DNA of 44,768 bases from an archaeon (lineage in GTDB: Archaea; Iainarchaeota; Iainarchaeia; Iainarchaeales; GW2011-AR10): positions 1 to 44,768 of the forward strand of contig JAUSEO010000026.1 of the NCBI GenBank assembly GCA_030651515.1, read 5' to 3'. This document shows, one piece after another, positions 2,917-44,688 of the stretch. Numbering within the stretch: the stretch's first letter is position 1; each line of letters opens with the position of its first letter. The notes beneath the pieces were generated by a model. It was given only the letters and a program-made list of their open reading frames with translations, had not been told where the DNA came from and searched no databases. The position numbers and the translations under genes are program-made.

Positions 2917-4389
2917 ATGCCTAGCATACTTGCAGTACTTGACCCGGTTTACAGGCTTTTGCCGGAAGTGAAAAAACCCGAAGTACAGGGCAGCCTCAAC
3001 AAGAGAATCACCTGGACGCTTGCAGCACTGGTTTTGTTTTTCATAATGGGAAACATCAGCGTGATTGGAATAGAGGCAAGCACTGCTGGGCAGCTTGCAC
3101 AGCTCCAGACAATACTTGCAAGCCAGATTGGAACCATAATAACAGTTGGAATCGGGCCTATTGTCCTTGCGTCCATAATCCTTCAGCTGCTTGTCGGCGG
3201 CGGGTTAATACAGGTTGACCTGACTGACACGGCAGAAAAAGCGCGGTTTACGTCCATGCAAAAACTGCTTGCAATCATTCTGTGCTTTGTTGAAGCAGGT
3301 GCTTACGTTTTCGGCGGGCTTCTCAGGCCGGCAGAGGGAATGTTTTTGTTTGTAATACTCCAGGTTGCAATTGGCTCGCTTATACTGATGTTTCTTGATG
3401 AAGTGGTTTCAAAGCACGGGATTGGTTCAGGAATCAGCCTCTTCATTGCAGGCGGGGTAGCCGGAGACGTTATCTGGAGGATATTCAACCCGCTTAACAG
3501 CCTGCGCGAACTCACTTTTTTTGGAAACGGGACAAATACTGGGGCAGGGCTAATCTGGCAGTTTTTTGCAGGCATACAATTTGACGGAGTGTTCTTGTCA
3601 TTTGTCACCAACCTTTTGCCGATTGTTTTCACGCTGGTGGTTTTCTTTGCCGTCGTGTTTGCAGAGGGAATGCACATAAACATCCCCATTGCAGTGGGAA
3701 GGGCGGGGCACAAGGCACGCTTTCCGGTAAAGTTTTTGTACGTTTCAAACATCCCTGTCATACTCGCAGCGGCATTGTTTGCAAACATTCAGCTCTGGTC
3801 AACCCTTTTGAGTGGCAGGCTTTCAACCGTGCCTGTGGTTGGGATTTTTCTTGAAAACGGGCTGAAGTTTTTGGCAACAATAGTGATTGCCCCGTTTCGC
3901 CTTGTTGAAAATTTTATCATCCAGGCTTCAAGCGAGGGGCTGGGTGTTTTCCAGACAATGGTAATGCAATTAGTACAGAGCATTACCACTTTGCAGCTTG
4001 TAGGGCTTGGGGGGCAGGTACTGCATGGCATTCTGTACATTTTTCTTTTGACCGTTTTGTGCGTTATTTTTGGAAAATTCTGGGTTGAAATGGCTGGCCA
4101 GGGGCCACAGGCTATTTCAAACCAGCTTGAAAAAAGCGGCATGTTCATCCCAGGGTTTCGAAGGGACCCAAGGGTCGTGAAGTCAATCCTTGAAAGGTAC
4201 ATCCCACCAATCAGCATCCTTGGCTCAATGTTTGTCGGGCTCTTGGCAGGGTTTGCGGACCTTACCGGTGCACTTGGAAGCGGGACAGGGATACTCCTGA
4301 CAGTTGGAATTGTTTACAGGCTTTATGAGGAGCTTGCAAAGCAGCAGTTAATCGAAATGCACCCTGTATTGGGGCAGTTCTTTGGTTGA
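2917..4389 (+). CDS. secY: Preprotein translocase subunit SecY
   Basis: 490-aa polytopic membrane protein at the canonical position after L15. Contains SecY-like blocks GIGPIVLASIILQLL and GILLTVGIVYRLYEE. Confidence 0.95.
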   Translation: MPSILAVLDPVYRLLPEVKKPEVQGSLNKRITWTLAALVLFFIMGNISVIGIEASTAGQLAQLQTILASQIGTIITVGIGPIVLASIILQLLVGGGLIQVDLTDTAEKARFTSMQKLLAIILCFVEAGAYVFGGLLRPAEGMFLFVILQVAIGSLILMFLDEVVSKHGIGSGISLFIAGGVAGDVIWRIFNPLNSLRELTFFGNGTNTGAGLIWQFFAGIQFDGVFLSFVTNLLPIVFTLVVFFAVVFAEGMHINIPIAVGRAGHKARFPVKFLYVSNIPVILAAALFANIQLWSTLLSGRLSTVPVVGIFLENGLKFLATIVIAPFRLVENFIIQASSEGLGVFQTMVMQLVQSITTLQLVGLGGQVLHGILYIFLLTVLCVIFGKFWVEMAGQGPQAISNQLEKSGMFIPGFRRDPRVVKSILERYIPPISILGSMFVGLLAGFADLTGALGSGTGILLTVGIVYRLYEELAKQQLIEMHPVLGQFFG

Positions 4390-4393
4390 GAAG
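4371..4393 (+). repeat. Direct repeat 1 (secY 3' end, includes the stop codon)
   Basis: ggggcagttctttggttgagaag recurs at 4475-4497 with one mismatch. Confidence 0.9.
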
Positions 4394-4415
4394 TATGACT
4401 AACAAAAATAGGAGT

Positions 4416-4473
4416 GTATTACTGCCCCGTTGAAAACGGGGCATATACGCGCCGTGAACCCGCGCAAGGGTTC
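4416..4473 (+). repeat. Structured intergenic element, copy A (short form)
   Basis: GTATTACTGCC-CCGTTGAAAACGG-GGCATATACGCGCCGT-GAACCCGCGCAAGGGTTC: two hairpins with conserved flanks shared with copies B-E. Confidence 0.85.
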
Positions 4474-4474
4474 T

Positions 4475-4497
4475 GGGGCAGTTTTTTGGTTGAGAAG
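4475..4497 (+). repeat. Direct repeat 2 (duplicate of secY 3' end)
   Basis: ggggcagttttttggttgagaag matches 4371-4393 at 22 of 23 positions. Confidence 0.9.
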
Positions 4498-4629
4498 GGT
4501 GAAAAAAGGTGGAAACTAACACAATGCAAAAAGCCGGAAAAAACAAAAATAAGAGGTTTTTTATTGCATTCGCTGGCAAAATATTTCACATTAGCCCGGT
4601 TTTCCCCAAATTAAAAAAGGCGGTTTTTC

Positions 4630-5154
4630 TTGGTTTTTTTTAACCCACAAATAGAGATTTCTGTCTTGGCAGCATTGCTTGCGGTAGTGAGCCAGTTTGT
4701 GCAGACAAAGTTTGGCAACCGCAAAGAAATGCTCAGGCACCAGGATGACATGAAGAAAAAACAGGACAAAATGAAAAAACTCGCCCAAAGCAGCAACCCC
4801 GGGGCGAAAAAAGAAATAGAAGAACTTGAAAAGGAAATGCTTGAATCCCTGAACGTGGTAATGAAAATGTCTACAAGAACAATGATTTATTCAATGGTGA
4901 TTTTTTTGCCGGCGTTTTTTTTGCTTGGAGTATTTTACTCTGAAGCAGTAATCAGCCTGCCGGTTCCGATTCCATGGTTTGCACAAGACCTGTCGCTTGT
5001 GAATCCGTTTACATGGTTCTCTTTTTACACACAGACCAATTGGACCGGGTGGTATGTCCTGAACTCGCTTGTGTTTAGCCTTTTGATACTTGCTCCTTTG
5101 ACAAAGTTTTTGGAAAAAAGAAAAGAGGGTGTGAAAGTTGCCGCGGCCAGCTGA
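4630..5154 (+). CDS. DUF106/EMC3-like membrane protein (archaeal YidC/Oxa1-like insertase candidate)
   Basis: TM helix, then a charged coiled segment (KKKQDKMKKL...EIEELEKEMLE), then 2 TM helices. Usual position after secY in archaeal operons. TTG start is uncertain. Confidence 0.6.
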   Translation: MVFFNPQIEISVLAALLAVVSQFVQTKFGNRKEMLRHQDDMKKKQDKMKKLAQSSNPGAKKEIEELEKEMLESLNVVMKMSTRTMIYSMVIFLPAFFLLGVFYSEAVISLPVPIPWFAQDLSLVNPFTWFSFYTQTNWTGWYVLNSLVFSLLILAPLTKFLEKRKEGVKVAAAS

Positions 5155-8052: not shown

Positions 8053-8094
8053 TTATGCAGGGGTACCGAAGTGGCCAAACGGGCAGGACTTAAG

Positions 8095-8187
8095 GAACGA
8101 GCCTTTGCGTGAGCTCGCGACGCTTATGTGTCCGGCCTGGTGGCCGGACGGTAATAATGTTGCAGTCAACGCGAAAAAGTTTGAGTG
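8095..8187 (+). other. tRNA-Leu intron (37/38 site) with a bulge-helix-bulge motif
   Basis: Central 4-bp helix is CTTA (nt 32-35) paired with TGAG near the intron 3' end. It is flanked by 3-nt bulges AG|G and TG|A. Outer helix is AAC/GTT. The intron interior carries copy E of the structured element. Confidence 0.75.
8098..8158 (-). repeat. Structured element, copy E (inside the tRNA-Leu intron)
   Basis: The + strand reads CGAGCctttgcgtgaGCTCG-CGACGCTTATGTGTCC-GGCCtggtGGCC-GGACGGTAATAAT. It is colinear with the reverse complement of copy D. Confidence 0.7.
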
Positions 8188-8234
8188 ATCCTGTGGCTTA
8201 GTGCCTTCGCAGGTTCGAACCCTGCCCCCTGCAT

Positions 8235-8350
8235 GAACCCTTGCGCTTAACAAACTGGCAAAAGAAACATTGTATTATTGTTCACTTGCCCATTTGTTAT
8301 TTGTTGGTTCACGGCGCGTATATGCCCTTTCTGCAAAATGGCAGTAATAC
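8235..8350 (-). repeat. Structured element, copy B (long form); also the likely promoter of the rpl18e operon
   Basis: The - strand reads GTATTACTGCC-ATTTTGCAGAAAG-GGCATATACGCGCCGTGAACC-[59-nt insert with imperfect 13-bp inverted repeat]-GCGCAAGGGTTC. On the + strand, GCGCGTATATGCC lies about 33 nt upstream of the ATG at 8354. Confidence 0.85.
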
Positions 8351-8353
8351 AAG

Positions 8354-10586: not shown

Positions 10587-10624
10587 TCACCTAAATGCTA
10601 AAGATGATAGTAACGGAGATTTCA

Positions 10625-11293
10625 ATGAAAAAAATAATTCCAAAACTTTTACTCGCATTTTTGTTTTTAGCAGTTACACCAACGGTTTTTGGAGCCAGTG
10701 ACTGCAATCAACACGAGGAAGGGACACACAACTGGGTACCTTATTGGGGAGGGTTACAGTTTCTAGAGAGATACGATGATTATATTATAACCTACCAAAA
10801 TTTTGCTTGGAACCAAAGGAATTTCAATAATATGAAAAATAGATATATAGATGGGAATGTAGACTACATGTACGAAATTAGAAGGCCGGGAGATGCTAAT
10901 AATAGCCCCCAAAAAGATTATTGGGATTATTGGAAGAGAACCAGGCCAGATTACTGTGAAGGCGTTTATTTTACCAATCTCCCAAACCCCATTGAAGATA
11001 ATTGGAGTGAGGAAGCAGATTGGTGGATGACTGAGTGTGATAACCTTTTTCCTTTCACACATGACCCGGATGATGAGGAATTTGAGATTAAAAGCCTAGA
11101 TGAGCACAACGAACTAGAACCTTACAAAGAATATTATGTAACTACAAAATTTTGGCGGGATCCCGAAGACAGAGGAAAAAGAATGGAAATAAGATCTGAA
11201 TCAGAGTATTGCGGAATTTTTAGTTTTCCCTTCTGTACGGATACAATTGGTTTTCACTGGTGCACAATGACCATAGACCAAATAAGAGCGTGA
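10625..11293 (+). CDS. Secreted Cys-rich protein, unknown family (P1)
   Basis: Signal peptide MKKIIPKLLLAFLFLAVTPTVFGA. Six Cys are conserved with the paralog at 30588-31211. Trp/acidic-rich. No family recognised. Confidence 0.7.
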   Translation: MKKIIPKLLLAFLFLAVTPTVFGASDCNQHEEGTHNWVPYWGGLQFLERYDDYIITYQNFAWNQRNFNNMKNRYIDGNVDYMYEIRRPGDANNSPQKDYWDYWKRTRPDYCEGVYFTNLPNPIEDNWSEEADWWMTECDNLFPFTHDPDDEEFEIKSLDEHNELEPYKEYYVTTKFWRDPEDRGKRMEIRSESEYCGIFSFPFCTDTIGFHWCTMTIDQIRA

Positions 11294-11302
11294 AGTGAAA
11301 CA

Positions 11303-12073
11303 ATGAATCTAAAACTTTTAGTAACCGGCATGATTTTTTTAATAGTAGTAATATCCATTGCCGTGGGAATCAGCACAAAAAATAATATACAACCCAATAC
11401 TAGTGGCGCCAAATTAAATGGCTACCCAGCAGAAAATTGGGAAAAAATAGAAATTTTCAGAGCGCCGAGCGGCGAGATATTCATTTCAAGTTTTCCTCTT
11501 ATTTCAAATGAAAACGAAATTCAGGCATTCAAACAAAAGTCAATAGAGAGACTAAATGGCCTACAAGAAGGGGTTGTTTACCACAATGTTGTCGTAACAT
11601 TTTCAAAAGAACTGAATGAAGAAGAAGTAAATGAACTCTCTGAAATTATCAACATTCTGAGATTAAAATACATAGCTGACCCAGAAGGAACAGGAACAAT
11701 TGGTTTTCCACTAGAGGAAGAAGAAAGAGAATATCTGGCCAATCTGGAACAGGCAATCAAAACTAAAATGTCTGACTGTTCTAATTTAGATAAAAAGCTT
11801 TCACCATTAGAAACAAGTGAAAGAGAAATCAAGAAAAAGGAACTGCTAGAACAGTGTGATGCATACAAAGACTTCAAACTCGTTAAGGGGTTTGTTGCGG
11901 CAGATGTAGTAGATTCAAAAGAAAATCTTCTTGAACTAGCAAACCATCAAAACGTGTTATTTGTTGATGTAGGCCCAATCGAACTATTAGAAAGGTACCC
12001 AAATGCATTCATTAAACCAATAAAAGATGGGTGGTATGAATATTCAAAAATAGTAAATAATGAAATTTCTTAA
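11303..12073 (+). CDS. N-terminally membrane-anchored protein, unknown family (P2)
   Basis: Single N-terminal TM (LLVTGMIFLIVVISIAVGI). Paralog at 31219-31974 shares VTFSKELNEEE, PEGTG and VDVGP-ELL blocks. Confidence 0.7.
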   Translation: MNLKLLVTGMIFLIVVISIAVGISTKNNIQPNTSGAKLNGYPAENWEKIEIFRAPSGEIFISSFPLISNENEIQAFKQKSIERLNGLQEGVVYHNVVVTFSKELNEEEVNELSEIINILRLKYIADPEGTGTIGFPLEEEEREYLANLEQAIKTKMSDCSNLDKKLSPLETSEREIKKKELLEQCDAYKDFKLVKGFVAADVVDSKENLLELANHQNVLFVDVGPIELLERYPNAFIKPIKDGWYEYSKIVNNEIS

Positions 12074-15857: not shown

Positions 15858-18623
15858 GTGTCCTTGGAAGAAAACAGCCTTGTCAAGACAATCCTACTTC
15901 TTGGCGCAATTTTATTCGGAGTCATCTTGATCATAGGCGCCATAATGCTGCTTGTCTTCCAAAAACCCGCAACTCCAACTACGTTCTGCGGGGACGGAAA
16001 AATCAACGACGAGGAACACTGCGAAGGCTCTTCCTTGCAGGGCTTCACCTGCATGGATTTCGGGTTAAGCGGCGGCACTCTTTCCTGTGGCAGCGGCACC
16101 TGCAAGTTTGACCTCTCAAAGTGCGAGCGCGAAAACATCCTGGACCCTGATGACAACCAGCCACAGCCTACGGAGGGATTGTGCATTTCTTTTGACGGCC
16201 TGACAGGCAAAACAGGCGCAGAGGCCGCACCACGCATGGCAACGTCGTGGGACTGGAGTGGCGCAAACAATTGCTTTATCGGGCTTGAAACCCAGGAGAA
16301 AGAACTTGGCGGGGTTAGTTATTGCGACTCGGCGCAGTTTGTCATACGCGTGTTTGAGGAACTGGAAAAAATGGAAACCAGCAAAGAGGCATCCAAGACT
16401 TTTTTCGCTGCACTGATAGCCGACGGCGTTTCTGAGGACTTCCGCAAGGACTTCTACCATTATTACAAGGAGCTCGCGTTTTTCGACCCGCCGTCTTTTT
16501 TCCTTGAAAACGCGCAAATCATCCTCGAAGAGGAACTGCTAGTGTTTGAACCACAACAGGTTGAAGAACCGGGGATTTACGAGGTCACGATAAGGCAGGA
16601 TGGCGCAAGTATTGTAGTGGAAATGAAACTTTTCAATAAGCCAATAAACCCGAGTGCGTTTTACTATTTTCCAATCGACGGCGAACTTGGGCTGAACAGG
16701 AGGGAGGATGAGACGCAACCGGACCGCGTTGGCTATGGCACGGGTTTTTCAGGTGACACATTCGTGTTTGGCGGTGTTACAATAGACCAAAATGTCATCT
16801 CGACAAACAGAAACGTTTCAGTGAGGAAAATAAATTCCTTTTTTGAGGCAAATGTTGAAAAAAGGGGCTATGCCCTGGACCTCGACCTTGAAAAAGGGAC
16901 ACTTGACGTTTACGCGTCAACCCCAAACGGCATAATGATTGACTTTAGCACTCTTGAAGGAGACGCAAAAAGGCTTGGGGCGCCTTTTTACCTCATAAAC
17001 GGTGACACCAAGGAAATAATGGCCGTGCCGCAGAATGTTTCCGAGTGGCGTTTTTTGTACTCCAAAAACCACTGCAGTGAAAAAGAAGCGCCTTTTCTGG
17101 GCAAAACATTCACGGACACGGTGCTTGAAAACAATGAATGCTTTACGGCAACCGGCCCTAGTTCAGTGGCTTATCCAAGCGTTTTAAGCGAGTTTGGGGG
17201 TCCGAACGCGGACGCGGTCATCGGAACCGTGATTTATGCAACCGACAGGTTTGTCCTACAGGGGGATTGCGGGACAAAAATCATCAGCCCAGAGGAAAGC
17301 CCGGAGCCTGGCAACAGCGCGTTCATCAACCACGTGGCAGTGGAAAATGACGTGGAATTCGGGAAAATTTCTCTTGGCGAGAAATGCATTTACGATGAAC
17401 CCCAAGGCAAAAAAGCCGTCGTGTTCTGGAATGAAAACCACGTTTTGAATGATTTTCCAACCTGCTCCAACTGCGCTTGTGTAAGCGACGAACTCGTATC
17501 AAGGATAATCGCAACAGGCTCAAAGCAGGAAGTGGTATACCCCGGTGTTTCGGTTTCTTTCTGGGTGCAGTTTGACGTGCGGTCCCCGATTTCACAGGCC
17601 GACATCGAGCTGTTTGTAAAAAAGCCTGACGGGAAAGAAATACGGGAAAGCCTGTCTTTTTTTGACAACGGTTCAAGCAACGATTTTGCGTACAACGACG
17701 GGATTTACGGCTCAACAATACCCGAGGGTTTCAAAGAGACGGGGGAGTATTATTTTTACTTCCGGGCAAAGGACGTTTACGGGAATGAAATGGAAAGCAA
17801 ACCAGCGGTGTTGCGGGTTGTTGAAAGGTCCGCGTGCGAAATAATACACTTTGGGGGAGAACTTGACAAACAATTGAACATTTTCATTGTCGGGGATAAC
17901 TGGGCGGAAAACCCTAGTGATTACTTGAACGAGGCAGTCGAGGCAAAAAACGGTTTTTTGAAAACACCCCCAGTGGACTCTTACCAAGGCGCGATTAACA
18001 TCATCACCATAAATGGGCCAGCGGACCTGGGTTGCACTGAAAGCGATAGGTATGCAGCCGGTCAGGTGGGCGGGGAAATACGTTATATCCGGGCGCTTAG
18101 GTGCGACGCTGAAAAAGTAGTGGCTGCGGCTGTTTCATGCGGCCTGCCATTCAAGGCAAGGGACGGGCCATTTGGGGACAAGGTGCTTGTCCTTTCCCAA
18201 ACAGGCACTGGATATAACCCTGCGCGTTTTGTCTCGAATGCTGACTTGTCAGGCCACATTGCAAGGGCGGGTGTTTTCCAAAACGACAGGTCACCCCAGG
18301 CACAAAGAACTGCAGTGCACGAACTGGGGCACACTTTTGGGTTGCTGGATTATTACTGGGACTTTGTCGGAGAGGCACTCGGCATAGAGTGGGACAATGG
18401 TTTTGCATGCATGAACAAAGAGGAAACAAACTGCATAATGTGCAACCTGGCTGAAAGTTCAAGGCAGGCTTATGACTGCACCACCACTTACAGGGACAAG
18501 TGCAACCTGTCAATCGACCAAGAGGAAGCTGAAGCGCCTTTCGGCATCTGCCCTGACAACCAGAAAGAATTAAACGATTATGAATACATGCAGGATTTTT
18601 TCTCAAAGCTTGAGGAGAGGTGA
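15858..18623 (+). CDS. Large membrane-anchored/secreted protein with a Cys-rich CGDG repeat and a C-terminal M64-like HEXXH zinc-metallopeptidase domain
   Basis: N-terminal TM (ILLLGAILFGVILIIGAIMLLVF). CGDGKINDEEHCEGSS...C repeat. NIFIVGDNWAE...AVHELGHTFGLLDYYW resembles peptidase M64. Confidence 0.7.
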   Translation: MSLEENSLVKTILLLGAILFGVILIIGAIMLLVFQKPATPTTFCGDGKINDEEHCEGSSLQGFTCMDFGLSGGTLSCGSGTCKFDLSKCERENILDPDDNQPQPTEGLCISFDGLTGKTGAEAAPRMATSWDWSGANNCFIGLETQEKELGGVSYCDSAQFVIRVFEELEKMETSKEASKTFFAALIADGVSEDFRKDFYHYYKELAFFDPPSFFLENAQIILEEELLVFEPQQVEEPGIYEVTIRQDGASIVVEMKLFNKPINPSAFYYFPIDGELGLNRREDETQPDRVGYGTGFSGDTFVFGGVTIDQNVISTNRNVSVRKINSFFEANVEKRGYALDLDLEKGTLDVYASTPNGIMIDFSTLEGDAKRLGAPFYLINGDTKEIMAVPQNVSEWRFLYSKNHCSEKEAPFLGKTFTDTVLENNECFTATGPSSVAYPSVLSEFGGPNADAVIGTVIYATDRFVLQGDCGTKIISPEESPEPGNSAFINHVAVENDVEFGKISLGEKCIYDEPQGKKAVVFWNENHVLNDFPTCSNCACVSDELVSRIIATGSKQEVVYPGVSVSFWVQFDVRSPISQADIELFVKKPDGKEIRESLSFFDNGSSNDFAYNDGIYGSTIPEGFKETGEYYFYFRAKDVYGNEMESKPAVLRVVERSACEIIHFGGELDKQLNIFIVGDNWAENPSDYLNEAVEAKNGFLKTPPVDSYQGAINIITINGPADLGCTESDRYAAGQVGGEIRYIRALRCDAEKVVAAAVSCGLPFKARDGPFGDKVLVLSQTGTGYNPARFVSNADLSGHIARAGVFQNDRSPQAQRTAVHELGHTFGLLDYYWDFVGEALGIEWDNGFACMNKEETNCIMCNLAESSRQAYDCTTTYRDKCNLSIDQEEAEAPFGICPDNQKELNDYEYMQDFFSKLEER

Positions 18624-19349: not shown

Positions 19350-19805
19350 ATGGTTTTTGGTTTTGGCGAGGGAAAAATAGAAATCAGGCTTGAGAAAACA
19401 ATGTTTGCGCCCGGTGAGGTGATTCGCGGGAAAATCGTGCTTTCTTTGAACAACCCAAAACAGGCGCGCAGGCTGAGGCTTGTCTTCACTGGAATTGACA
19501 AAGTCACTGAAAGGGCAACCATGGGCAGCAGGCCCTCCACGAGGACAACTGACAGGGTGTTCCACTCATTTGCAGTGGACCTTGACGGGGAAAAAGAATA
19601 CAATGGAACACTGGAGTATGACTTTGAAATCGCGGTCCCGAATATCCCGCAGGCAGCCATGCCTGAAGGAATACTTGGGACTGCACTGGCCGCGGCAAGC
19701 CTTTTATCCGGAAACGTCAGGGGAAGGGAATGGGTTTTGAATGCCTCGCTTGACTGCCCGGGCTTTGACATAAACCGAAAAGTGCAGATACAGGTTAACC
19801 AATAG
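19350..19805 (+). CDS. Spo0M/arrestin-N-like protein
   Basis: GFGEGKIEIRLEKTMFAPGEVIRGKIVLSLNNPKQARRLRLVFTG resembles the Spo0M family N-terminus. A GTG at 19341 is an alternative start. Confidence 0.5.
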   Translation: MVFGFGEGKIEIRLEKTMFAPGEVIRGKIVLSLNNPKQARRLRLVFTGIDKVTERATMGSRPSTRTTDRVFHSFAVDLDGEKEYNGTLEYDFEIAVPNIPQAAMPEGILGTALAAASLLSGNVRGREWVLNASLDCPGFDINRKVQIQVNQ

Positions 19806-20563: not shown

Positions 20564-20668
20564 TAAATAGAATGGCTTTAAAACTGTTTAAATTGGTTTT
20601 GGAAATGAGCTTTGACATAAACAAAAAGGTACAAATACAGGTAACTGCTTAGTAATTAATGTGGAAAA

Positions 20669-26861: not shown

Positions 26862-26883
26862 AAACCCTTGCGCGGGTTTTAAA
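26862..26883 (+). terminator. Hairpin AAACCC-TTGCGC-GGGTTT plus T-run after the PIN gene (also hairpin 2 of element copy C)
   Basis: A 6-bp stem followed by TTTT on the + strand, and by T7 on the - strand. Confidence 0.45.
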
Positions 26884-26971
26884 ACTTTGGCAATTGAAGC
26901 AAATATTCGATATTTCTTTTGCCAAAGTTTTACGGCGCATATTTGCCTGGTCTTTGACCAGGCAGTAATAT
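26862..26971 (-). repeat. Structured element, copy C (long form); also the likely promoter of the rpo7 operon
   Basis: The - strand reads ATATTACTGCC-TGGTCAAAGACCA-GGCAAATATGCGCCGT-[perfect 13-bp inverted repeat AAAACTTTGGCAA, 25-nt spacer]-AAACCCGCGCAAGGGTTT. On the + strand, GCGCATATTTGCC lies about 36 nt upstream of the ATG at 26977. Confidence 0.85.
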
Positions 26972-26976
26972 TGGAT

Positions 26977-29526: not shown

Positions 29527-30536
29527 TGTAATGTCAACCTTTTAACGTAACATTCTTCTTTTTTGAAGTCTTTTTGTTGTGCAAGGAGGGTGTAGTGGGT
29601 TTATCCGATTTTTTTGAGTGGGGGAAGAAGTCCCCCACTACTTTAGATTTTATATGAGACTATTGTCAGAAGAACGTCGTTTTTTGATAAAAGCTTTACG
29701 GAAAAAAGTTCCAGTGAACATGATAGCTAAAGTTTTTGGAGTGAACCGTAAAACCGTCTGGTATTGGGGTAAACAAGATGCGAGGACTGGTTTAATTGAT
29801 AAACCGAGGAATAAAGCCAGAAAAATCACTCTTCAGGTTGAATTGACTATTTTGTTTTTGAGAGTCATGTTCAAGTGGGGAACTGCAAGAATTCAACAGG
29901 GTCTTTTTGATTTACCGGATTTCATGAAAAAGGAAATGGAAAATCCGGTACAACGTGTAAAATTGTCCAGACAGTCAATTAATGAGGTTTTACGAAAACA
30001 TCACTTAAATGGTTTTACCAGAGAACAAAAGGCTTGGAAATTTTTCAGGGCTTCCCAACCTAATGAATTATGGCAGTTAGACCTAAAAGGGCCGTTTACA
30101 GTTCAAGGACAAAAATGGTACTTCCTAATTTGTATAGACGATTACAGCCGTTACATTGTTACCGCTGACCAGTTTGACCACTGTCCCAACATTCAGGAAA
30201 TACTGGGTTCCATTCAACCATCCATTAACCAGTTTCACCCAAAAAATATTCTGACGGACAATAACCCATTCAAACAGGACTGGGCAGAAAAATTAAAACA
30301 ACAAGGAATAAACGCTTTATTCGCACACCCTTATTATCCTCAAGACAAGGGAAAAGTCGAACGTTGCATCCGAAACCTTGCAGAAGAATTCGTCAACCTC
30401 TTACTCAAATTTCCTCATTGGTTAAACGGAAAACTCAAACAATGGGTAGAATGGTACAATAACCACCGTTACCACCGAGGAATTAAAGGATATCCTGTAA
30501 CCCTGTTTTATGGGGAGTTAAAGACTTGACTTTACA
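29527..30536 (+). mobile_element. Insertion sequence (rve/DDE, IS481-like), 1010 bp
   Basis: IRL is TGTAATGTCAACCTTTTAAC (29527-29546). The reverse complement of IRR is TGTAAAGTCAAGTCTTTAAC (30517-30536). They match at 16 of 20 positions with TG..CA termini. A 5-bp direct repeat TCAAC flanks the element (29522-29526 and 30537-30541). Single transposase ORF. Confidence 0.8.
29654..30529 (+). CDS. DDE transposase/integrase (rve domain) with N-terminal HTH
   Basis: HTH is NMIAKVFGVNRKTVWYW. Catalytic residues are WQLDLKG (D), ILTDNNPF (D) and PQDKGKVERC (E). The stop lies inside IRR. Confidence 0.85.
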   Translation: MRLLSEERRFLIKALRKKVPVNMIAKVFGVNRKTVWYWGKQDARTGLIDKPRNKARKITLQVELTILFLRVMFKWGTARIQQGLFDLPDFMKKEMENPVQRVKLSRQSINEVLRKHHLNGFTREQKAWKFFRASQPNELWQLDLKGPFTVQGQKWYFLICIDDYSRYIVTADQFDHCPNIQEILGSIQPSINQFHPKNILTDNNPFKQDWAEKLKQQGINALFAHPYYPQDKGKVERCIRNLAEEFVNLLLKFPHWLNGKLKQWVEWYNNHRYHRGIKGYPVTLFYGELKT

Positions 30537-30587: not shown

Positions 30588-31211
30588 ATGAAAAAATTGC
30601 TTGCAAAAGTTGCGCTTGTTTTAGGGGTTCTATTTATTTCTGGCACAGCCTTTGGCGCTAAAGCTTGTACTGAACATGAAGAAGGGACTCACGACTGGGT
30701 GCCGGATTGGGATGGAAATGTGAGTTTTATATATCGTGAGGATTCAACTATTACTCATCAAACTTTTTCTTGGGTTCAAAACAATTTGGATAATTTTATG
30801 AGCAAAAATGCATATTACCAATATGAACTCAAGCGACCAGATAAAGAAGAGTACTGGGACTATTGGAAACTGATAATCCCGTTTGTTTGTATACGCAAGG
30901 GCTATTTTACTAATCTCCCAAACCCGATTGAAGACCAATGGTCGGAAGAAACGGACCTGTGGTTTATTTTAGGATGCGGAAGACCTTCATGGGGGTTTGA
31001 CGAAGAATTTGAAATTAAAAGCCTAGACCCAAATGCACTGACAGCTGACGTTACATATTTTGTAGATGCAAACTTTTGGCGCGATACTGAAGACAGGGGA
31101 AAACCAATGACTTTGCAGTCTGAATCCGAATTTTGTGGCATTAATTATTTTTGTAATCGTGGCCAGGTATTCCACTGGTGTGAAATGACAGAGCAGAGGA
31201 TAACTGGGTGA
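30588..31211 (+). CDS. Secreted Cys-rich protein, paralog of P1 (P1')
   Basis: Signal MKKLLAKVALVLGVLFISGTAFGA. Shares C-x-HEEGTH-WVP, YWDYWK, YFTNLPNPIED-WSEE, EEFEIKSLD, FWRD-EDRGK, SESE-CGI and FHWC-MT with 10625-11293. Confidence 0.7.
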   Translation: MKKLLAKVALVLGVLFISGTAFGAKACTEHEEGTHDWVPDWDGNVSFIYREDSTITHQTFSWVQNNLDNFMSKNAYYQYELKRPDKEEYWDYWKLIIPFVCIRKGYFTNLPNPIEDQWSEETDLWFILGCGRPSWGFDEEFEIKSLDPNALTADVTYFVDANFWRDTEDRGKPMTLQSESEFCGINYFCNRGQVFHWCEMTEQRITG

Positions 31212-31218
31212 AACAAAA

Positions 31219-31974
31219 ATGGATCGAAAAATATTGTTGGTCGGAGTCATTTTAAGTATTTTAGTTTCAGTTGGATTTGCTGTTAGCATAGCAACAAAAG
31301 GTGATTTGAGTTTGTTAGGACTAAAAGTACCTGACAAGGAAGAACTCCAGGTAGTCAATGCATTCAAAGAAAATGGCGAAACCATTGAAATAGTTCAGAC
31401 TCCAACTGACCAAATAGCAATTGCAAGCAGGGCAATGCCTTCCACTGAAAGTGAATTACTTGCATTTAAGCAAAAGTCAGTGGAGCGGTTAAATTTGCTT
31501 TCAACTGGAGTCACTTACCAGGCTATAGTTACCTTTTCAAAAGAATTAAACGAAGAAGAACTCAAAGAACTTTCTAAAATAGTATCTATTTATAGGGTAA
31601 AATTTGTTTCTTTCCCCGAAGGCACTGGTGCCGTAGAGTTTCCAGTACCAGAAACATATTTTGAAGAGCTTGAACAAAGAATCAATTCCATGTTTTCTGA
31701 CAAAGGGGATATTTGTTCCAAGGAAGTTTTAGCCACAAAAGGGGAAGCAGCAAAAAAGCAATGTGATTCTTATAAGAATTATAAAGCTCTCAAAGGCTTT
31801 ATTGCAGCCGACACAATAGTTGGTTCCAAAGAACAGTTAATGAATCTTGCAAGAACCGAAAATGTTTTAGTAGTTGACGTTGGGCCTGTCGAACTATTAC
31901 AACAATATCCCGGCGCATTTATTATGCCAACAAAAGACATTTGGTATGAGTACTCAAAAATAACCAATTCATAA
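31219..31974 (+). CDS. N-terminally anchored protein, paralog of P2 (P2')
   Basis: Shares AFKQKS-ERLN, VTFSKELNEEE, PEGTG, LKGF-AAD, NVL-VDVGP-ELL and WYEYSKI with 11303-12073. Confidence 0.7.
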   Translation: MDRKILLVGVILSILVSVGFAVSIATKGDLSLLGLKVPDKEELQVVNAFKENGETIEIVQTPTDQIAIASRAMPSTESELLAFKQKSVERLNLLSTGVTYQAIVTFSKELNEEELKELSKIVSIYRVKFVSFPEGTGAVEFPVPETYFEELEQRINSMFSDKGDICSKEVLATKGEAAKKQCDSYKNYKALKGFIAADTIVGSKEQLMNLARTENVLVVDVGPVELLQQYPGAFIMPTKDIWYEYSKITNS

Positions 31975-33706: not shown

Positions 33707-34627
33707 TCATTTGTTGTTTAAATTAGTTTCATTCTTTAGTTTATCTAAAACATCGTCAGAAGACATTATTTCAATTGCCCCGAATTCTTGAATAGCCTGT
33801 TTAATTCCTTCGTTTGGCAAAATATGCAATGCTAATGACGGCACAAAAATTGGAACTTTTTGTTTATATGCAGTTTTTGTTTGAACCATAGCACCACCCA
33901 TAGCGCCACTTGCAATATTTATGATTCCATTAGATATGCCTGACGTGATTCTGTTCCTTTGTACGAACGAATAATTTGCACCACCAAAATTTGGCGAATA
34001 TTCGCTAACTAGTAGCCCTCTTTCCTTGATTGTATTTAATAATTTTTTATTTTCTTCAGGGTATAGATTAAAAAAACCCGTTCCCATAATCGAAATAGTT
34101 TTCCCACCAGTTTGCTGTAAGACTGCATTGTGTGCAGCTGTATCGATTCCAAGTGCTCCGCCACTAACAATAACTACCCCCTTTTTTGCTAAATTGCTTG
34201 CAATAACCGATGTCAAATCTAGTGCTTTTTCCGAGGCAGTACGACTTCCAACAATAGCAATTTTATTTTCACTATATAATAGGGATTTGTCACCCCAGAG
34301 GAATAAAAAGATTGGAGGTAAAGGGATGTTTTTCAACTGGCGAGGATAATCTTTATCGAATAAGGTAAGTATTTCGATTTTGTTTTTTTTGCAGTCATGT
34401 ATAGTTTTTAGATAATTTTCGTCAGATGCACTTTTGAGTTTTTCAATCTCTTTTACCATTAAATTAGTAATACCTTTAGTTTTTTCTAAATCTAAATTAG
34501 CAGCATTAAATACTCCGTCAATAGTTTCAAATCTTTGAACTAAATATAAGATTCGTGATGGTCCAAGACCATGAACATTATTTAATTTCATCAATTTTAC
34601 GAGTTGAGAATCAGTAAGTTCAGTCAT
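33707..34627 (-). CDS. dprA: DprA/Smf-like (SLOG/Rossmann) DNA-processing protein
   Basis: IAIVGSRTASEKALD...VIVSGGALGIDTAAHNAVL...ISIMGTGFFNLYPEEN...SEYSP...FVQRNRITSGIS..INIASGAMGGAMVQ. The N-terminus is HhH-like. Confidence 0.8.
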   Translation of the reverse strand: MTELTDSQLVKLMKLNNVHGLGPSRILYLVQRFETIDGVFNAANLDLEKTKGITNLMVKEIEKLKSASDENYLKTIHDCKKNKIEILTLFDKDYPRQLKNIPLPPIFLFLWGDKSLLYSENKIAIVGSRTASEKALDLTSVIASNLAKKGVVIVSGGALGIDTAAHNAVLQQTGGKTISIMGTGFFNLYPEENKKLLNTIKERGLLVSEYSPNFGGANYSFVQRNRITSGISNGIINIASGAMGGAMVQTKTAYKQKVPIFVPSLALHILPNEGIKQAIQEFGAIEIMSSDDVLDKLKNETNLNNK

Positions 34628-35235
34628 TATTTCCCACCCATTTCATTGATGCCTAAACATAATGCTGTAACACTACACGTAGATTTGCTTTTTTTTAACA
34701 ATTTGGCGCATTCGAGTAAATGTATCCCTGTCGTTTTAGTATCATCCAACAGCAAAATGTTTGTTTCTTGCGAATCTAACTTGCGAGTCAGAACCATAGT
34801 ATCTTTGATGCTAGTATATCTATCATATAAACTGGCAGTGTATGAAAATTTTTTAGTCTCTTTTATTCGCTTAATTATGTTTTCATTCTTAAAAGAATTT
34901 TTCTTTGCGAGTTTGACTGCAAGCGGTAATAATGTAGGTGAATATTCATCTATTTTTGAAGAAGGCAATACGATTAAAAGGTCGATTTCTTGAAAACGAT
35001 TGTGTGAAATTATAGCTTGTAATGCGGGTAAAAAATAGTCGGAGAGGTCTTTTGTTTTTGATTCTATAATTTTTTCGGAATACTCATCACTTTTTGTATT
35101 TTTTTTAAAATATTTTCTGGGTGCATGAACTGGCACTTTAAGACCTGGATATAGCCGATACCAGTTAGCAGAGTCTGTTTCCCAGGGATATTTTCTTTGC
35201 GTACCAGTCAAATTAACTTCAATAAAACCCCCCAT
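34627..35235 (-). CDS. Phosphoribosyltransferase-like protein (ComF/ComFC-like, no zinc finger)
   Basis: PRPP-loop-like NILLLDDTKTTGIHLLECAKLL. Its stop TAA overlaps the dprA ATG by 1 nt (TAATG). Confidence 0.65.
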   Translation of the reverse strand: MGGFIEVNLTGTQRKYPWETDSANWYRLYPGLKVPVHAPRKYFKKNTKSDEYSEKIIESKTKDLSDYFLPALQAIISHNRFQEIDLLIVLPSSKIDEYSPTLLPLAVKLAKKNSFKNENIIKRIKETKKFSYTASLYDRYTSIKDTMVLTRKLDSQETNILLLDDTKTTGIHLLECAKLLKKSKSTCSVTALCLGINEMGGK

Positions 35236-35251
35236 CAAATCCCCTTTTTAG

Positions 35252-35302
35252 CTATTATAATAACGTTTTCTTATTATAATAACGTTTTCTTATTATAATA
35301 TC
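35252..35302. repeat. Tandem direct repeat, 2.6 copies of the 19-bp unit TTATTATAATAACGTTTTC, in the promoter region of the PRTase-dprA operon
   Basis: Read directly. Each unit carries a TATA-like TTATTATAATAA. The last unit ends about 20 nt upstream of the ATG at 35235 (- strand). Confidence 0.85.
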
Positions 35303-35386
35303 TTTACTAGAGACCTTACTGCCGGTGCCAATTTTGTGTAAAAGGTAGCCTTTATTTACGCAACATGCTCTAACCTTATCCAAAAT

Positions 35387-44557: not shown

Positions 44558-44593
44558 GTATAACTTTTTAGTTGTTTTTTGGCTTTTCCTGCT

Positions 44594-44629
44594 CGGTACA
44601 AACCGGCTGGGTTTGCCAGTCGGTAATAC
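44594..44629 (-). repeat. Partial structured element (copy F), head-to-head with copy D
   Basis: The + strand reads GGTACAAA-CCGGCTGGgtttgCCAGTCGG-TAATAC. It forms the palindrome CGGTAATAC-A-GTATTACCG with the start of copy D. Confidence 0.5.
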
Positions 44630-44630
44630 A

Positions 44631-44688
44631 GTATTACCGCCCTTTCGCAGAAAGGGCACATACTGCGTTGCGGACCCTGCACGGGTTC
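44631..44688 (+). repeat. Structured intergenic element, copy D (short form, diverged)
   Basis: GTATTACCGCC-CTTTCGCAGAAAG-GGCACATACTGCGTTGC-GGACCCTGCACGGGTTC. Confidence 0.8.

Follow-up and report, generated by a model that had tools for sequence, protein, structure and literature searches.

Casposons make target duplications of 14–35 nt, target tRNA genes (tRNA-Leu among them) and the aEF-2 gene at their 3′ ends and also occur as solo terminal repeats (PMC4779613). In SSV-type elements the att sites are a repeat of 44 bp from the 3′ end of a tRNA, and mismatches are inherited (PMC3293823); IS1630, a DDE transposon of the IS30 family from Mycoplasma, has target duplications of 19–26 bp (PMC2853133). 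The tRNA introns of the Thermoproteales have spread by an unknown mechanism at the DNA level (Fujishima et al. 2010, summarised in PMC4090602). Here we describe a locus that resembles each of these systems in part: two copies of a 24-nt direct repeat, X1 and X2, at the end of secY in a Diapherotrites/Iainarchaeia (DPANN) archaeon, with a member of a family of small hairpin repeats (element copy A) lying between them. The locus is on contig JAUSEO010000026.1; the whole contig of 44.8 kb, which carries ribosomal-protein/secY/rpoD operons, is the stretch that was analysed and is called the window below.

The insertion is bounded by a target duplication and has one end of the element, the hairpin hp2, at the junction; the same arrangement was observed on a second, independent occasion. 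We read the 24-mers as the target duplication made when about 80 nt, ending in a small non-autonomous hairpin repeat, were integrated in the spacer between secY and the downstream EMC3 gene. We give this reading a probability of roughly 0.45.

An insertion bounded by a duplication of the secY end

Allowing up to three mismatches, we found the 24-mer pattern exactly twice in the window and not once in 100 dinucleotide shuffles; the pair was also significant in the flank test (P < 1/300 and P < 1/500). X1 begins at base 2 of a Leu codon, spans the final 17 coding bases of secY (..L G Q F F G) and the TGA stop (4387–4389) and ends with GAAG. The sole mismatch between the two copies, C4380 vs T4484, is a synonymous change in the third base of a Phe codon, and secY retains an intact reading frame. 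Exactly 80 nt (4394–4473) separate X1 from X2, and these consist of a 21-nt spacer, S1, and element copy A. A sequence-only reading of the window had reported a 24-mer at the secY end that recurs with one mismatch, about 80 nt with an element copy between the two occurrences, and a preserved end of the reading frame. Its coordinates and sequences proved exact, the intervening 80 nt contain a match to the covariance model described below, and the frame is as it had stated. The features of the locus, together with the other family copies, are listed in Table 1.

We compared the locus with those of relatives (L002/L003, SecY 76% identical; L004, L163 and L164, ∼65%). All four have a single copy of the secY end. 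No second copy was found in them within 400 nt, the best matches having 7–9 mismatches in 20, and a covariance-model search downstream of secY gave no match. Since the four relatives have one secY end and no element, the window holds an insertion of 104 nt; the extra bases amount to one repeat unit, S1 and the element, and are delimited by the repeat. Shared sequence resumes at 4556 with a motif whose form common to the relatives is TTTTTTATTG(T/C)ATT and which is probably promoter-like. The closest relative reads GGGGCAGTTTTTTGGGTGA at the secY end and has T at the position of the mismatch; thus, the ancestral T persists in X2, and X1, the coding copy, carries a synonymous C.

The repeats had been taken in the sequence-only reading for the footprint of an insertion, a view that would fall if relatives lacking the element still carried both repeats, or if no other copy of the element had flanking duplications. 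Both points were examined. The element-less relatives (L002/L003, L004, L163 and L164) hold a single secY end, and one more member of the family, in JACQJF01, is flanked with the same geometry, the other eight of the 10 copies tested having none. The footprint interpretation is therefore supported by the empty sites and by the second flanked member.

Table 1. Features of the secY locus, family copies and the single integrase-core gene of the window
Feature	Position	Strand	Description
secY	2917..4389	+	490 aa; from the list of open reading frames; Pfam SecY and Plug_translocon domains
X1	4370..4393	+	upstream copy of the 24-nt direct repeat, TGGGGCAGTTCTTTGGTTGAGAAG; secY end, TGA, then GAAG
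S1	4394..4414	+	21-nt spacer between X1 and the element; single occurrence in all sequence examined
Element copy A	4413..4473	+	covariance-model match 87.7 bits, E = 1e-20; fold and covariation
X2	4474..4497	+	downstream non-coding copy of the 24-nt repeat, TGGGGCAGTTTTTTGGTTGAGAAG; begins exactly at the 3′ end of copy A
Possible continuation of the duplicated unit	4542..4555	+	13/14 match to the end of S1; weak
Conserved motif	4556..4576	+	GTTTTTTATTGCATTCGCTGG; downstream of secY in all four relatives
EMC3/TMCO1-like gene	4630..5154	+	downstream of secY; TTG start; syntenic in all relatives
Family copy E	8099..8160	−	antisense; lies in a class II (Leu-UAA-like) tRNA, within its 93-nt intron; 52.6 bits, E = 1e-11
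Family copy B	8235..8353	−	long form; antisense; hp2 end 1 nt from the tRNA discriminator base
Family copy C	26862..26974	−	long form; fills the spacer between a PIN gene and rpoE (Rpb7); no flanking duplication
rve transposase gene	29618..30529	+	303 aa; rve and rve_3 integrase-core (DDE) domains; between Sua5 and Kae1/TsaD
Family copy D	44628..44688	+	short form; closest to the JACQJF01 copy; contig end 80 nt beyond

Both junctions are present in the independent Logan assembly of run SRR13727527, where contig L001 reads secY, X1, S1 and element, ending at window position 4471, and contig L160 starts at window position 4445 and reads element, X2 and the downstream genes. The two contigs overlap by 27 nt. 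The assembly graph breaks inside the 3′ half of the element, so this 27-mer must occur elsewhere in the sample too, implying that more identical copies of the element exist there. Such a recurring 27-mer could in principle have led to a contig misjoined through the 3′ half of the element, with X1 and X2 at different loci. We consider a misjoin extremely improbable: both junctions were recovered independently, an X2 preceded by the element exists regardless, and the joined order is the expected one since the order secY, EMC3, L34e is the same in all relatives. The 24-mer pair should be neither annotated as a part of the secY gene nor regarded as a misassembly.

The end of S1 (4401–4414, AACAAAAATAGGAG) matches 13 of 14 positions at 4542–4555 (AACAAAAATAAGAG; P ∼0.004). 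The duplicated unit may originally have been ∼45 nt, with extra sequence in its second copy, although the match is weak and lies in low-complexity A-rich sequence; a unit of this length would put the element exactly between both copies. Compared as possible native spacers, neither S1 nor S2 is significantly similar to the spacers of the relatives.

In the secY–EMC3 spacer of L164 (7490–7510) an exact 11-mer of hp2, GCGCAAGGGTT, adjoins the conserved TTTTTATTG, against a chance expectation of ∼2e-4. L164 is otherwise without the element, and the 11-mer may be the relic of an old occupant of the spacer. L002 shows a looser resemblance (AAAACCGCAAGTGAAGC).

One could also suppose that the element is an old resident of this spacer, for example an RNA or terminator module, and that a later local tandem duplication, comprising the secY end, the spacer and the element, was followed by loss of the second element; the second 24-mer would then be no footprint of an insertion. 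The position of the L164 11-mer beside the conserved motif, the partial match of S1 farther downstream and the conservation of other copies at orthologous sites are all in keeping with such a history. It requires two events, though, one of them the exact removal of the second element; no element is present in the closest relative (76%); and the second case with the same exact junction is left unexplained. We rate this history as quite improbable.

As an observation in its own right, the T6 run at the secY end (CAGTTTTTTGG in L002 and in X2) is broken in the functional copy (TTCTTT, window 4378–4383). If oligo-T serves as the archaeal terminator here, termination may have shifted from the secY end to X2, and the element would then lie in the 3′ untranslated region of secY; both steps are speculative.

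The element family and its second flanked member

The element is 59–61 nt long, has two hairpins and was found as 12 members in three Iainarchaeia genomes. From 5′ to 3′ its consensus consists of GTATTACYGCC, the variable hairpin hp1, GGCAYATAC, the linker GCGCCGTGAA and hp2 (GAACCC GCGCAA GGGTTC); a 4-bp lower stem (GTAT/ATAC) encloses hp1, and TATTAC is found 4 nt 5′ of hp1 in all strong copies. In copy A the lower stem pairs 4416–4419 with 4445–4448, hp1 pairs 4424–4431 with 4435–4442, the conserved linker is ACGCGCCGT, and hp2 is formed by GAACCC (4456–4461) and GGGTTC (4468–4473).

The covariance model (R2) was built from copies A–D and one copy from another genome, and it found copy E, which had no part in building it. 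Of the cells in the alignment of the 12 members, 96.9% are paired, and 14 of the 18 base pairs have undergone compensatory change; this alignment was fitted to the model and is hence biased to structure, but the differing hp1 stems are evident in the raw sequences. None of 500 shuffles did as well, and slid controls fell to 14–49% paired. G–U pairs favour the element strand as written (6 vs 1).

Copies A, D and the JACQJF01 copy make up the most similar subgroup (80–88% identity), the 3′ halves of copy A and the JACQJF01 copy being identical. Copies B and C have an additional hairpin of ∼55 nt inserted in or before hp2 (∼57 nt and within hp2 in copy B). This long-form insert (∼52–57 nt, ...GGCAAGTGAACAATAA..CAATGTTTCTTTTGCCAGTTTGTT) is homologous between copy B (8248–8306, minus strand) and a copy in JACQJF01, L161b (17369–17433, minus strand), and is missing from L162b, the orthologue of L161b; it is thus a hairpin module within the element that was gained or lost separately. 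Partial modules made of GTATTA plus a hairpin were also seen beside full copies, in tandem or head to head (L162 ∼16896–16935 and L161 ∼17484–17525, both on the element strand 5′ of the copies; window 44575–44629), which suggests that the 5′ module of the element can duplicate by itself.

Rfam gave no match in the window at gathering thresholds, and in 4340–4640 only chance-level matches (E above 2), none of them on the element. A strict pattern scan had one match in GTDB genomes and none in JGI metagenomes. Relaxed scans produced 94 viral (IMG/VR) and 60 metagenome matches, all of them chance matches without the rest of the element, and a generic scan for TATTAC plus a hairpin was too unspecific (45 matches vs 68 in shuffles). 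The structured repeat family is undescribed; the feature is best placed among small repeats of the kind of a miniature inverted-repeat transposable element (MITE) and is not categorically new.

We compared, for ten copies, the 40 nt past the hp2 end with the 300 nt past the 5′ end; shuffles served as controls. The flanking duplication was significant at two of the ten, copy A (24 nt) and the best copy of JACQJF010000049 (21 nt; Ca. Iainarchaeum, assembly GCA_016198165.1, L005/L161), and both duplications begin at offset 0 after GGGTTC. The JACQJF01 duplication is a direct repeat of a tRNA 3′ end, 18 of 21 positions being identical: TTCGAATCTCTCTGGGGCTAT and TTCGGATCTCTCCGGAGCTAT directly bracket a 118-nt head-to-head pair of elements, and TTCGAATCTCTCTGGGGCTAT belongs to an orphan 3′ fragment of a tRNA, spanning its T-loop, acceptor strand and discriminator.

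This fragment (L161 9236–9264, plus strand; L005 3169–3197, minus strand) has a perfect T-arm GAGAGTTCGAATCTCTC, an acceptor strand and a discriminator. The sequence upstream of it is AT-rich and promoter-like, and within 9 kb there is no 5′ half. The fragment is situated at a break of synteny between L161 (20 kb of JACQJF01) and L162 (a syntenic 21 kb of a related genome; the neighbouring transporter is 79% identical), beside genes for the toxin–antitoxin proteins ParE and MazF and for Orc1/Cdc6. It may have been left as an att remnant by an integrated element, or it may be one half of a split tRNA.

Such surroundings, namely a tRNA 3′ end (the classical archaeal att site), a synteny break and adjacent toxin–antitoxin and Orc1/Cdc6 genes, are in line with a different origin, in which an integrative element with the secY end as its attP entered in Campbell fashion and has since shrunk to an ∼80-nt remnant with the hairpin element at its right end. 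In the secY case the target is likewise a gene 3′ end with the reading frame reconstituted, and the downstream copy keeps the ancestral T while the copy that finishes secY differs, which matches the inheritance of mismatches between attP and attB (PMC3293823). Against this, near-identical elements are found at unrelated targets (secY end vs tRNA end), and two independent deletions would be needed that both spared exactly the 60-nt element. No integrase was found in the window or in the 20 kb of L161, no full-length tRNA sharing that 3′ end is present within 9 kb of the JACQJF01 case, and the element was not found in IMG/VR contigs. An att-type origin is, in our judgement, unlikely.

It is also conceivable that no dedicated machinery was involved, and that a fragment ending at hp2 was pasted in during break repair or replication, the duplication of the flank being a by-product. 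The fact that two independent events in two genomes share the same junction base (offset 0 after GGGTTC) speaks against this and points to an end that is defined and recognised; nor do the junctions show any convincing microhomology. Repair would, on the other hand, accommodate a duplication that is long and of variable length (21 nt; 24 or possibly ∼45 nt), the lack of inverted termini at copy A and of any transposase found, and the many copies without duplications, and known bacterial cases also overlap gene 3′ ends and have no mobility genes (PMC2853133). We regard repair as a possible but rather unlikely source of both cases.

With a target duplication, as we prefer, the hp2 end of the element would be the end joined to the target DNA. 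The target would be opened by two nicks about two helical turns (21–24 nt) apart, and filling in of the single-stranded gaps would leave one copy still ending secY and one free copy; the integrating enzyme would act in trans. Older members lacking duplications, at tRNA 3′ ends, in a tRNA intron and in spacers, may have lost them or arrived differently.

Several observations weigh against integration with target duplication. Copy A is a monomer without terminal inverted repeats, 21 nt of non-element spacer separate X1 from its 5′ end, and eight of the ten tested copies show no flanking duplication. In the spacers of copies B and C the element extends from the end of one gene to the next start codon, and a decayed repeat would have no space there. 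The inner partner of the JACQJF01 pair belongs to a tRNA-adjacent subfamily and has the usual geometry of that subfamily, so that it may be native rather than co-inserted. Given the hp2 11-mer in the same spacer of L164, the secY locus may long have held an element. Copies differ strongly in their hairpin stems, and two species share one conserved copy at an orthologous site, points that argue for a maintained function as much as for mobility. Finally, no element-related transposase, integrase, Cas1, HUH or reverse transcriptase gene was present among the window open reading frames scanned, which comprise housekeeping genes, one MazF toxin and one rve-domain transposase. The rve gene was considered as the mobiliser and rejected; it has no inverted termini and no similarity of its ends to the element, and no target duplication was found around it.

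The distribution of the family is patchy. Five copies are present in the 45-kb window, four in the 20 kb of JACQJF01 and two in the 21 kb of L162; none was found in 21 kb of L165, a third species, nor in L004 or L163. Such a lineage-restricted pattern is consistent with gain and loss. The site of one JACQJF01 copy, L161a, is empty in L162 (a 44-nt spacer), and copy A and L161a are lineage-specific members, as copy B probably is. L161b and L162b, by contrast, are orthologues. Each is antisense and located upstream of an aminoacyl-tRNA synthetase gene, hp2 being one base away from the discriminator of a tRNA-Ile(UAU) that contains an intron. They differ by compensatory changes in hp1 and by a 52-nt indel that separates the long from the short form. 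A tRNA intron of a relative is a weak match to the model, with a compensatory change in hp2 from CCC/GGG to CGG/CCG. From the orthologous copies and this intron, with their compensatory changes, some members are old and maintained. The mixture of maintained and lineage-specific copies fits a family that is or was mobile and has been partly domesticated.

The geometry of L161b and L162b ('discriminator A, then T, then reverse-complemented hp2') recurs at copy B and at the inner partner of the JACQJF01 pair. Copy B lies behind a class II tRNA (8056–8234) and its 5′ end is 3 nt from the ATG of L18e; it has no flanking duplication. Copy D, which has a degenerate head-to-head partner at ∼44575–44629, has no significant one.

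The class II tRNA (8056–8234, plus strand), between rpoD and L18e, has a CTTAAG anticodon loop and a 93-nt intron at the canonical position and is most likely Leu-UAA. Default ARAGORN detected no tRNA, and Rfam missed this one as well. ARAGORN with introns allowed found it, calling the window tRNA Ile(tat) and its L002 homologue Ser(tga), with ambiguous intron boundaries. A bulge-helix-bulge (BHB) can be read by eye for this intron, which contains copy E; the minimum-free-energy fold of 4350–4530 contains no BHB at copy A, though no dedicated BHB search was made.

Comparison with described mobile elements and proposed roles

None of the known families that we compared can be claimed as the home of the element. 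Bacterial repeat-bounded inserts also have direct duplications of tens of bases that are single in the empty allele, their repeats often overlap the last bases of a gene, and no mobility gene is carried in the insert. They are kilobase gene cassettes with repeats mostly >30 bp, whereas here an archaeon has an 80-nt insert that belongs to a structured multicopy family.

MITEs and the repetitive extragenic palindromic (REP) sequences with their REPIN doublets are closer in appearance, being 60–120 nt long, intergenic and in both orientations, with hairpins, a short motif 5′ of the hairpin and head-to-head doublets (as in JACQJF01 and possibly at D), and with a patchy presence between genomes. 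MITEs have inverted termini that match a parent insertion sequence (IS) and short duplications of fixed length. The termini of copy A (TGTATTAC... and ...GGGTTC) show no inverted match, ends of the hp2 type on both sides were found only in the JACQJF01 head-to-head pair (∼60–70% similarity), and duplications occur at two of ten copies (24 nt and 21 nt). REP/REPIN sequences are characterised by a short palindrome that has a conserved motif on its 5′ side and frequently forms inverted doublets, and this is present here (the L161 doublet, possibly D). REPs, however, make no duplication and depend on a gene for a REP-associated tyrosine transposase (RAYT); no Y1/HUH protein was seen among the window open reading frames scanned, nor was a RAYT or a parent IS, and the 21–24-nt duplications at two copies do not fit that family. 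A further difference from MITEs and REPs is the covariation of the stems from copy to copy, together with the conservation of one copy or more at an orthologous site. PATEs derived from IS200/IS605 have subterminal hairpins and insert 3′ of a fixed tetra- or pentanucleotide without duplicating the target. Hairpins are present here as well, but the 21–24-nt duplications and the lack of a common target tetranucleotide do not agree with them, and the window contains no TnpA or TnpB.

Casposons are, by description, similar in being archaeal, in targeting gene 3′ ends, in making long duplications and in leaving small solo-repeat remnants. They measure 8–20 kb and carry Cas1 and PolB, neither of which was found in the 44.8-kb window. 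The att duplications of integrases (SSV and pNOB8 types; PMC3293823, PMC4090602) likewise repeat a gene 3′ end and reconstitute the gene, as seen here, the gene in our second case being a tRNA. Their cores are typically ∼40–60 nt and surround kilobases that include the integrase; here 80–118 nt are enclosed, with no integrase gene between or beside the repeats, in the window or in the 20 kb of L161.

Transposition of tRNA introns in the Thermoproteales is comparable in that closely related short sequences occur in tRNA introns and elsewhere in the genome, copy E being in the intron of a class II tRNA. The Thermoproteales copies are all tRNA introns bounded by a BHB; the copies here are mostly intergenic, no BHB was seen at copy A, and the intron copy E is antisense to the strand that G–U pairs favour in this family. 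The target duplication of IS1630 is of the same range of length, but it is an autonomous bacterial IS with inverted termini, and the only rve gene of the window has no termini matching the element. The sequence-only reading had called so long a duplication atypical for DDE transposons. Atypical it is, yet with the 19–26 bp of IS1630 (PMC2853133) it is not unheard of.

A more far-reaching view would make the family a new kind of small mobile element of archaea, with hp2 recognised by an integrase acting in trans and with insertion beside or within the 3′ ends of genes for tRNAs and proteins, accompanied by a duplication of about two helical turns. The integrase could be Cas1-like or HUH-like, or the process could be RNA-mediated, from an RNA derived from a tRNA intron. 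We hold this view to be doubtful; were it true, tRNA introns, tRNA trailers and intergenic repeats of DPANN archaea would share one origin.

Other roles were considered and rejected. As promoters, reversed copies B and C would put GTATATG or CATATTTG ∼33–37 nt before an ATG; these are weaker than real promoters of the window, and the hairpin covariation and the orientation of A and D would be left unexplained. A T-run that would serve a terminator follows hp2 only in A (within X2) and in C. We found no support for a guide RNA with the element as scaffold and X2 as guide, and a known RNA was rejected for want of an Rfam match. A diversity-generating retroelement, with repeats of ∼100 nt that differ at adenines, does not agree with a 24-nt repeat whose sole difference is C/T, nor with the window open reading frames scanned, which include no reverse transcriptase. 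A CRISPR-like interpretation of the 24-nt repeat was rejected as well, and a BHB intron is disfavoured, the minimum-free-energy fold containing none at copy A.

The genomes of DPANN archaea are tiny and streamlined, and repeats and mobile DNA are considered scarce in them. Here a structured family of ∼60 nt is present at about one copy per 10 kb within the most conserved operons (ribosomal protein/secY, rpoE, tRNA genes), and copy A lies in what looks like a fresh insertion scar, with the end of an essential gene duplicated. If mobile, the family would be a handle on the gain of DNA in such genomes and would bear on the origin of archaeal tRNA introns and trailers, a question open since the reports of intron transposition in the Thermoproteales. 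Should it be a functional motif of RNA or DNA instead, covariation supports it strongly and it has not been described before.

Other repeats in the window

Two paralogous two-gene cassettes (10595–12073 and 30588–31974, plus strand) have no Pfam match. They share a 60-nt stretch with 77% identity (10967–11026 and 30903–30962), and the second cassette directly follows the rve gene. A 34-nt direct repeat with 85% identity (19762–19795 and 20609–20642, plus strand; GCTTTGACATAAAC..GTRCARATACAGGT) is located ∼30–70 nt upstream of the starts of two open reading frames (19831 and 20669) that lack Pfam matches. Finally, two tandem copies of a 19-nt repeat, AAGAAAACGTTATTATAAT, occupy ∼35250–35305, in the upstream region of a minus-strand open reading frame (34627–35238) that adjoins the DprA (DNA_processg_A) gene at 33707–34627.

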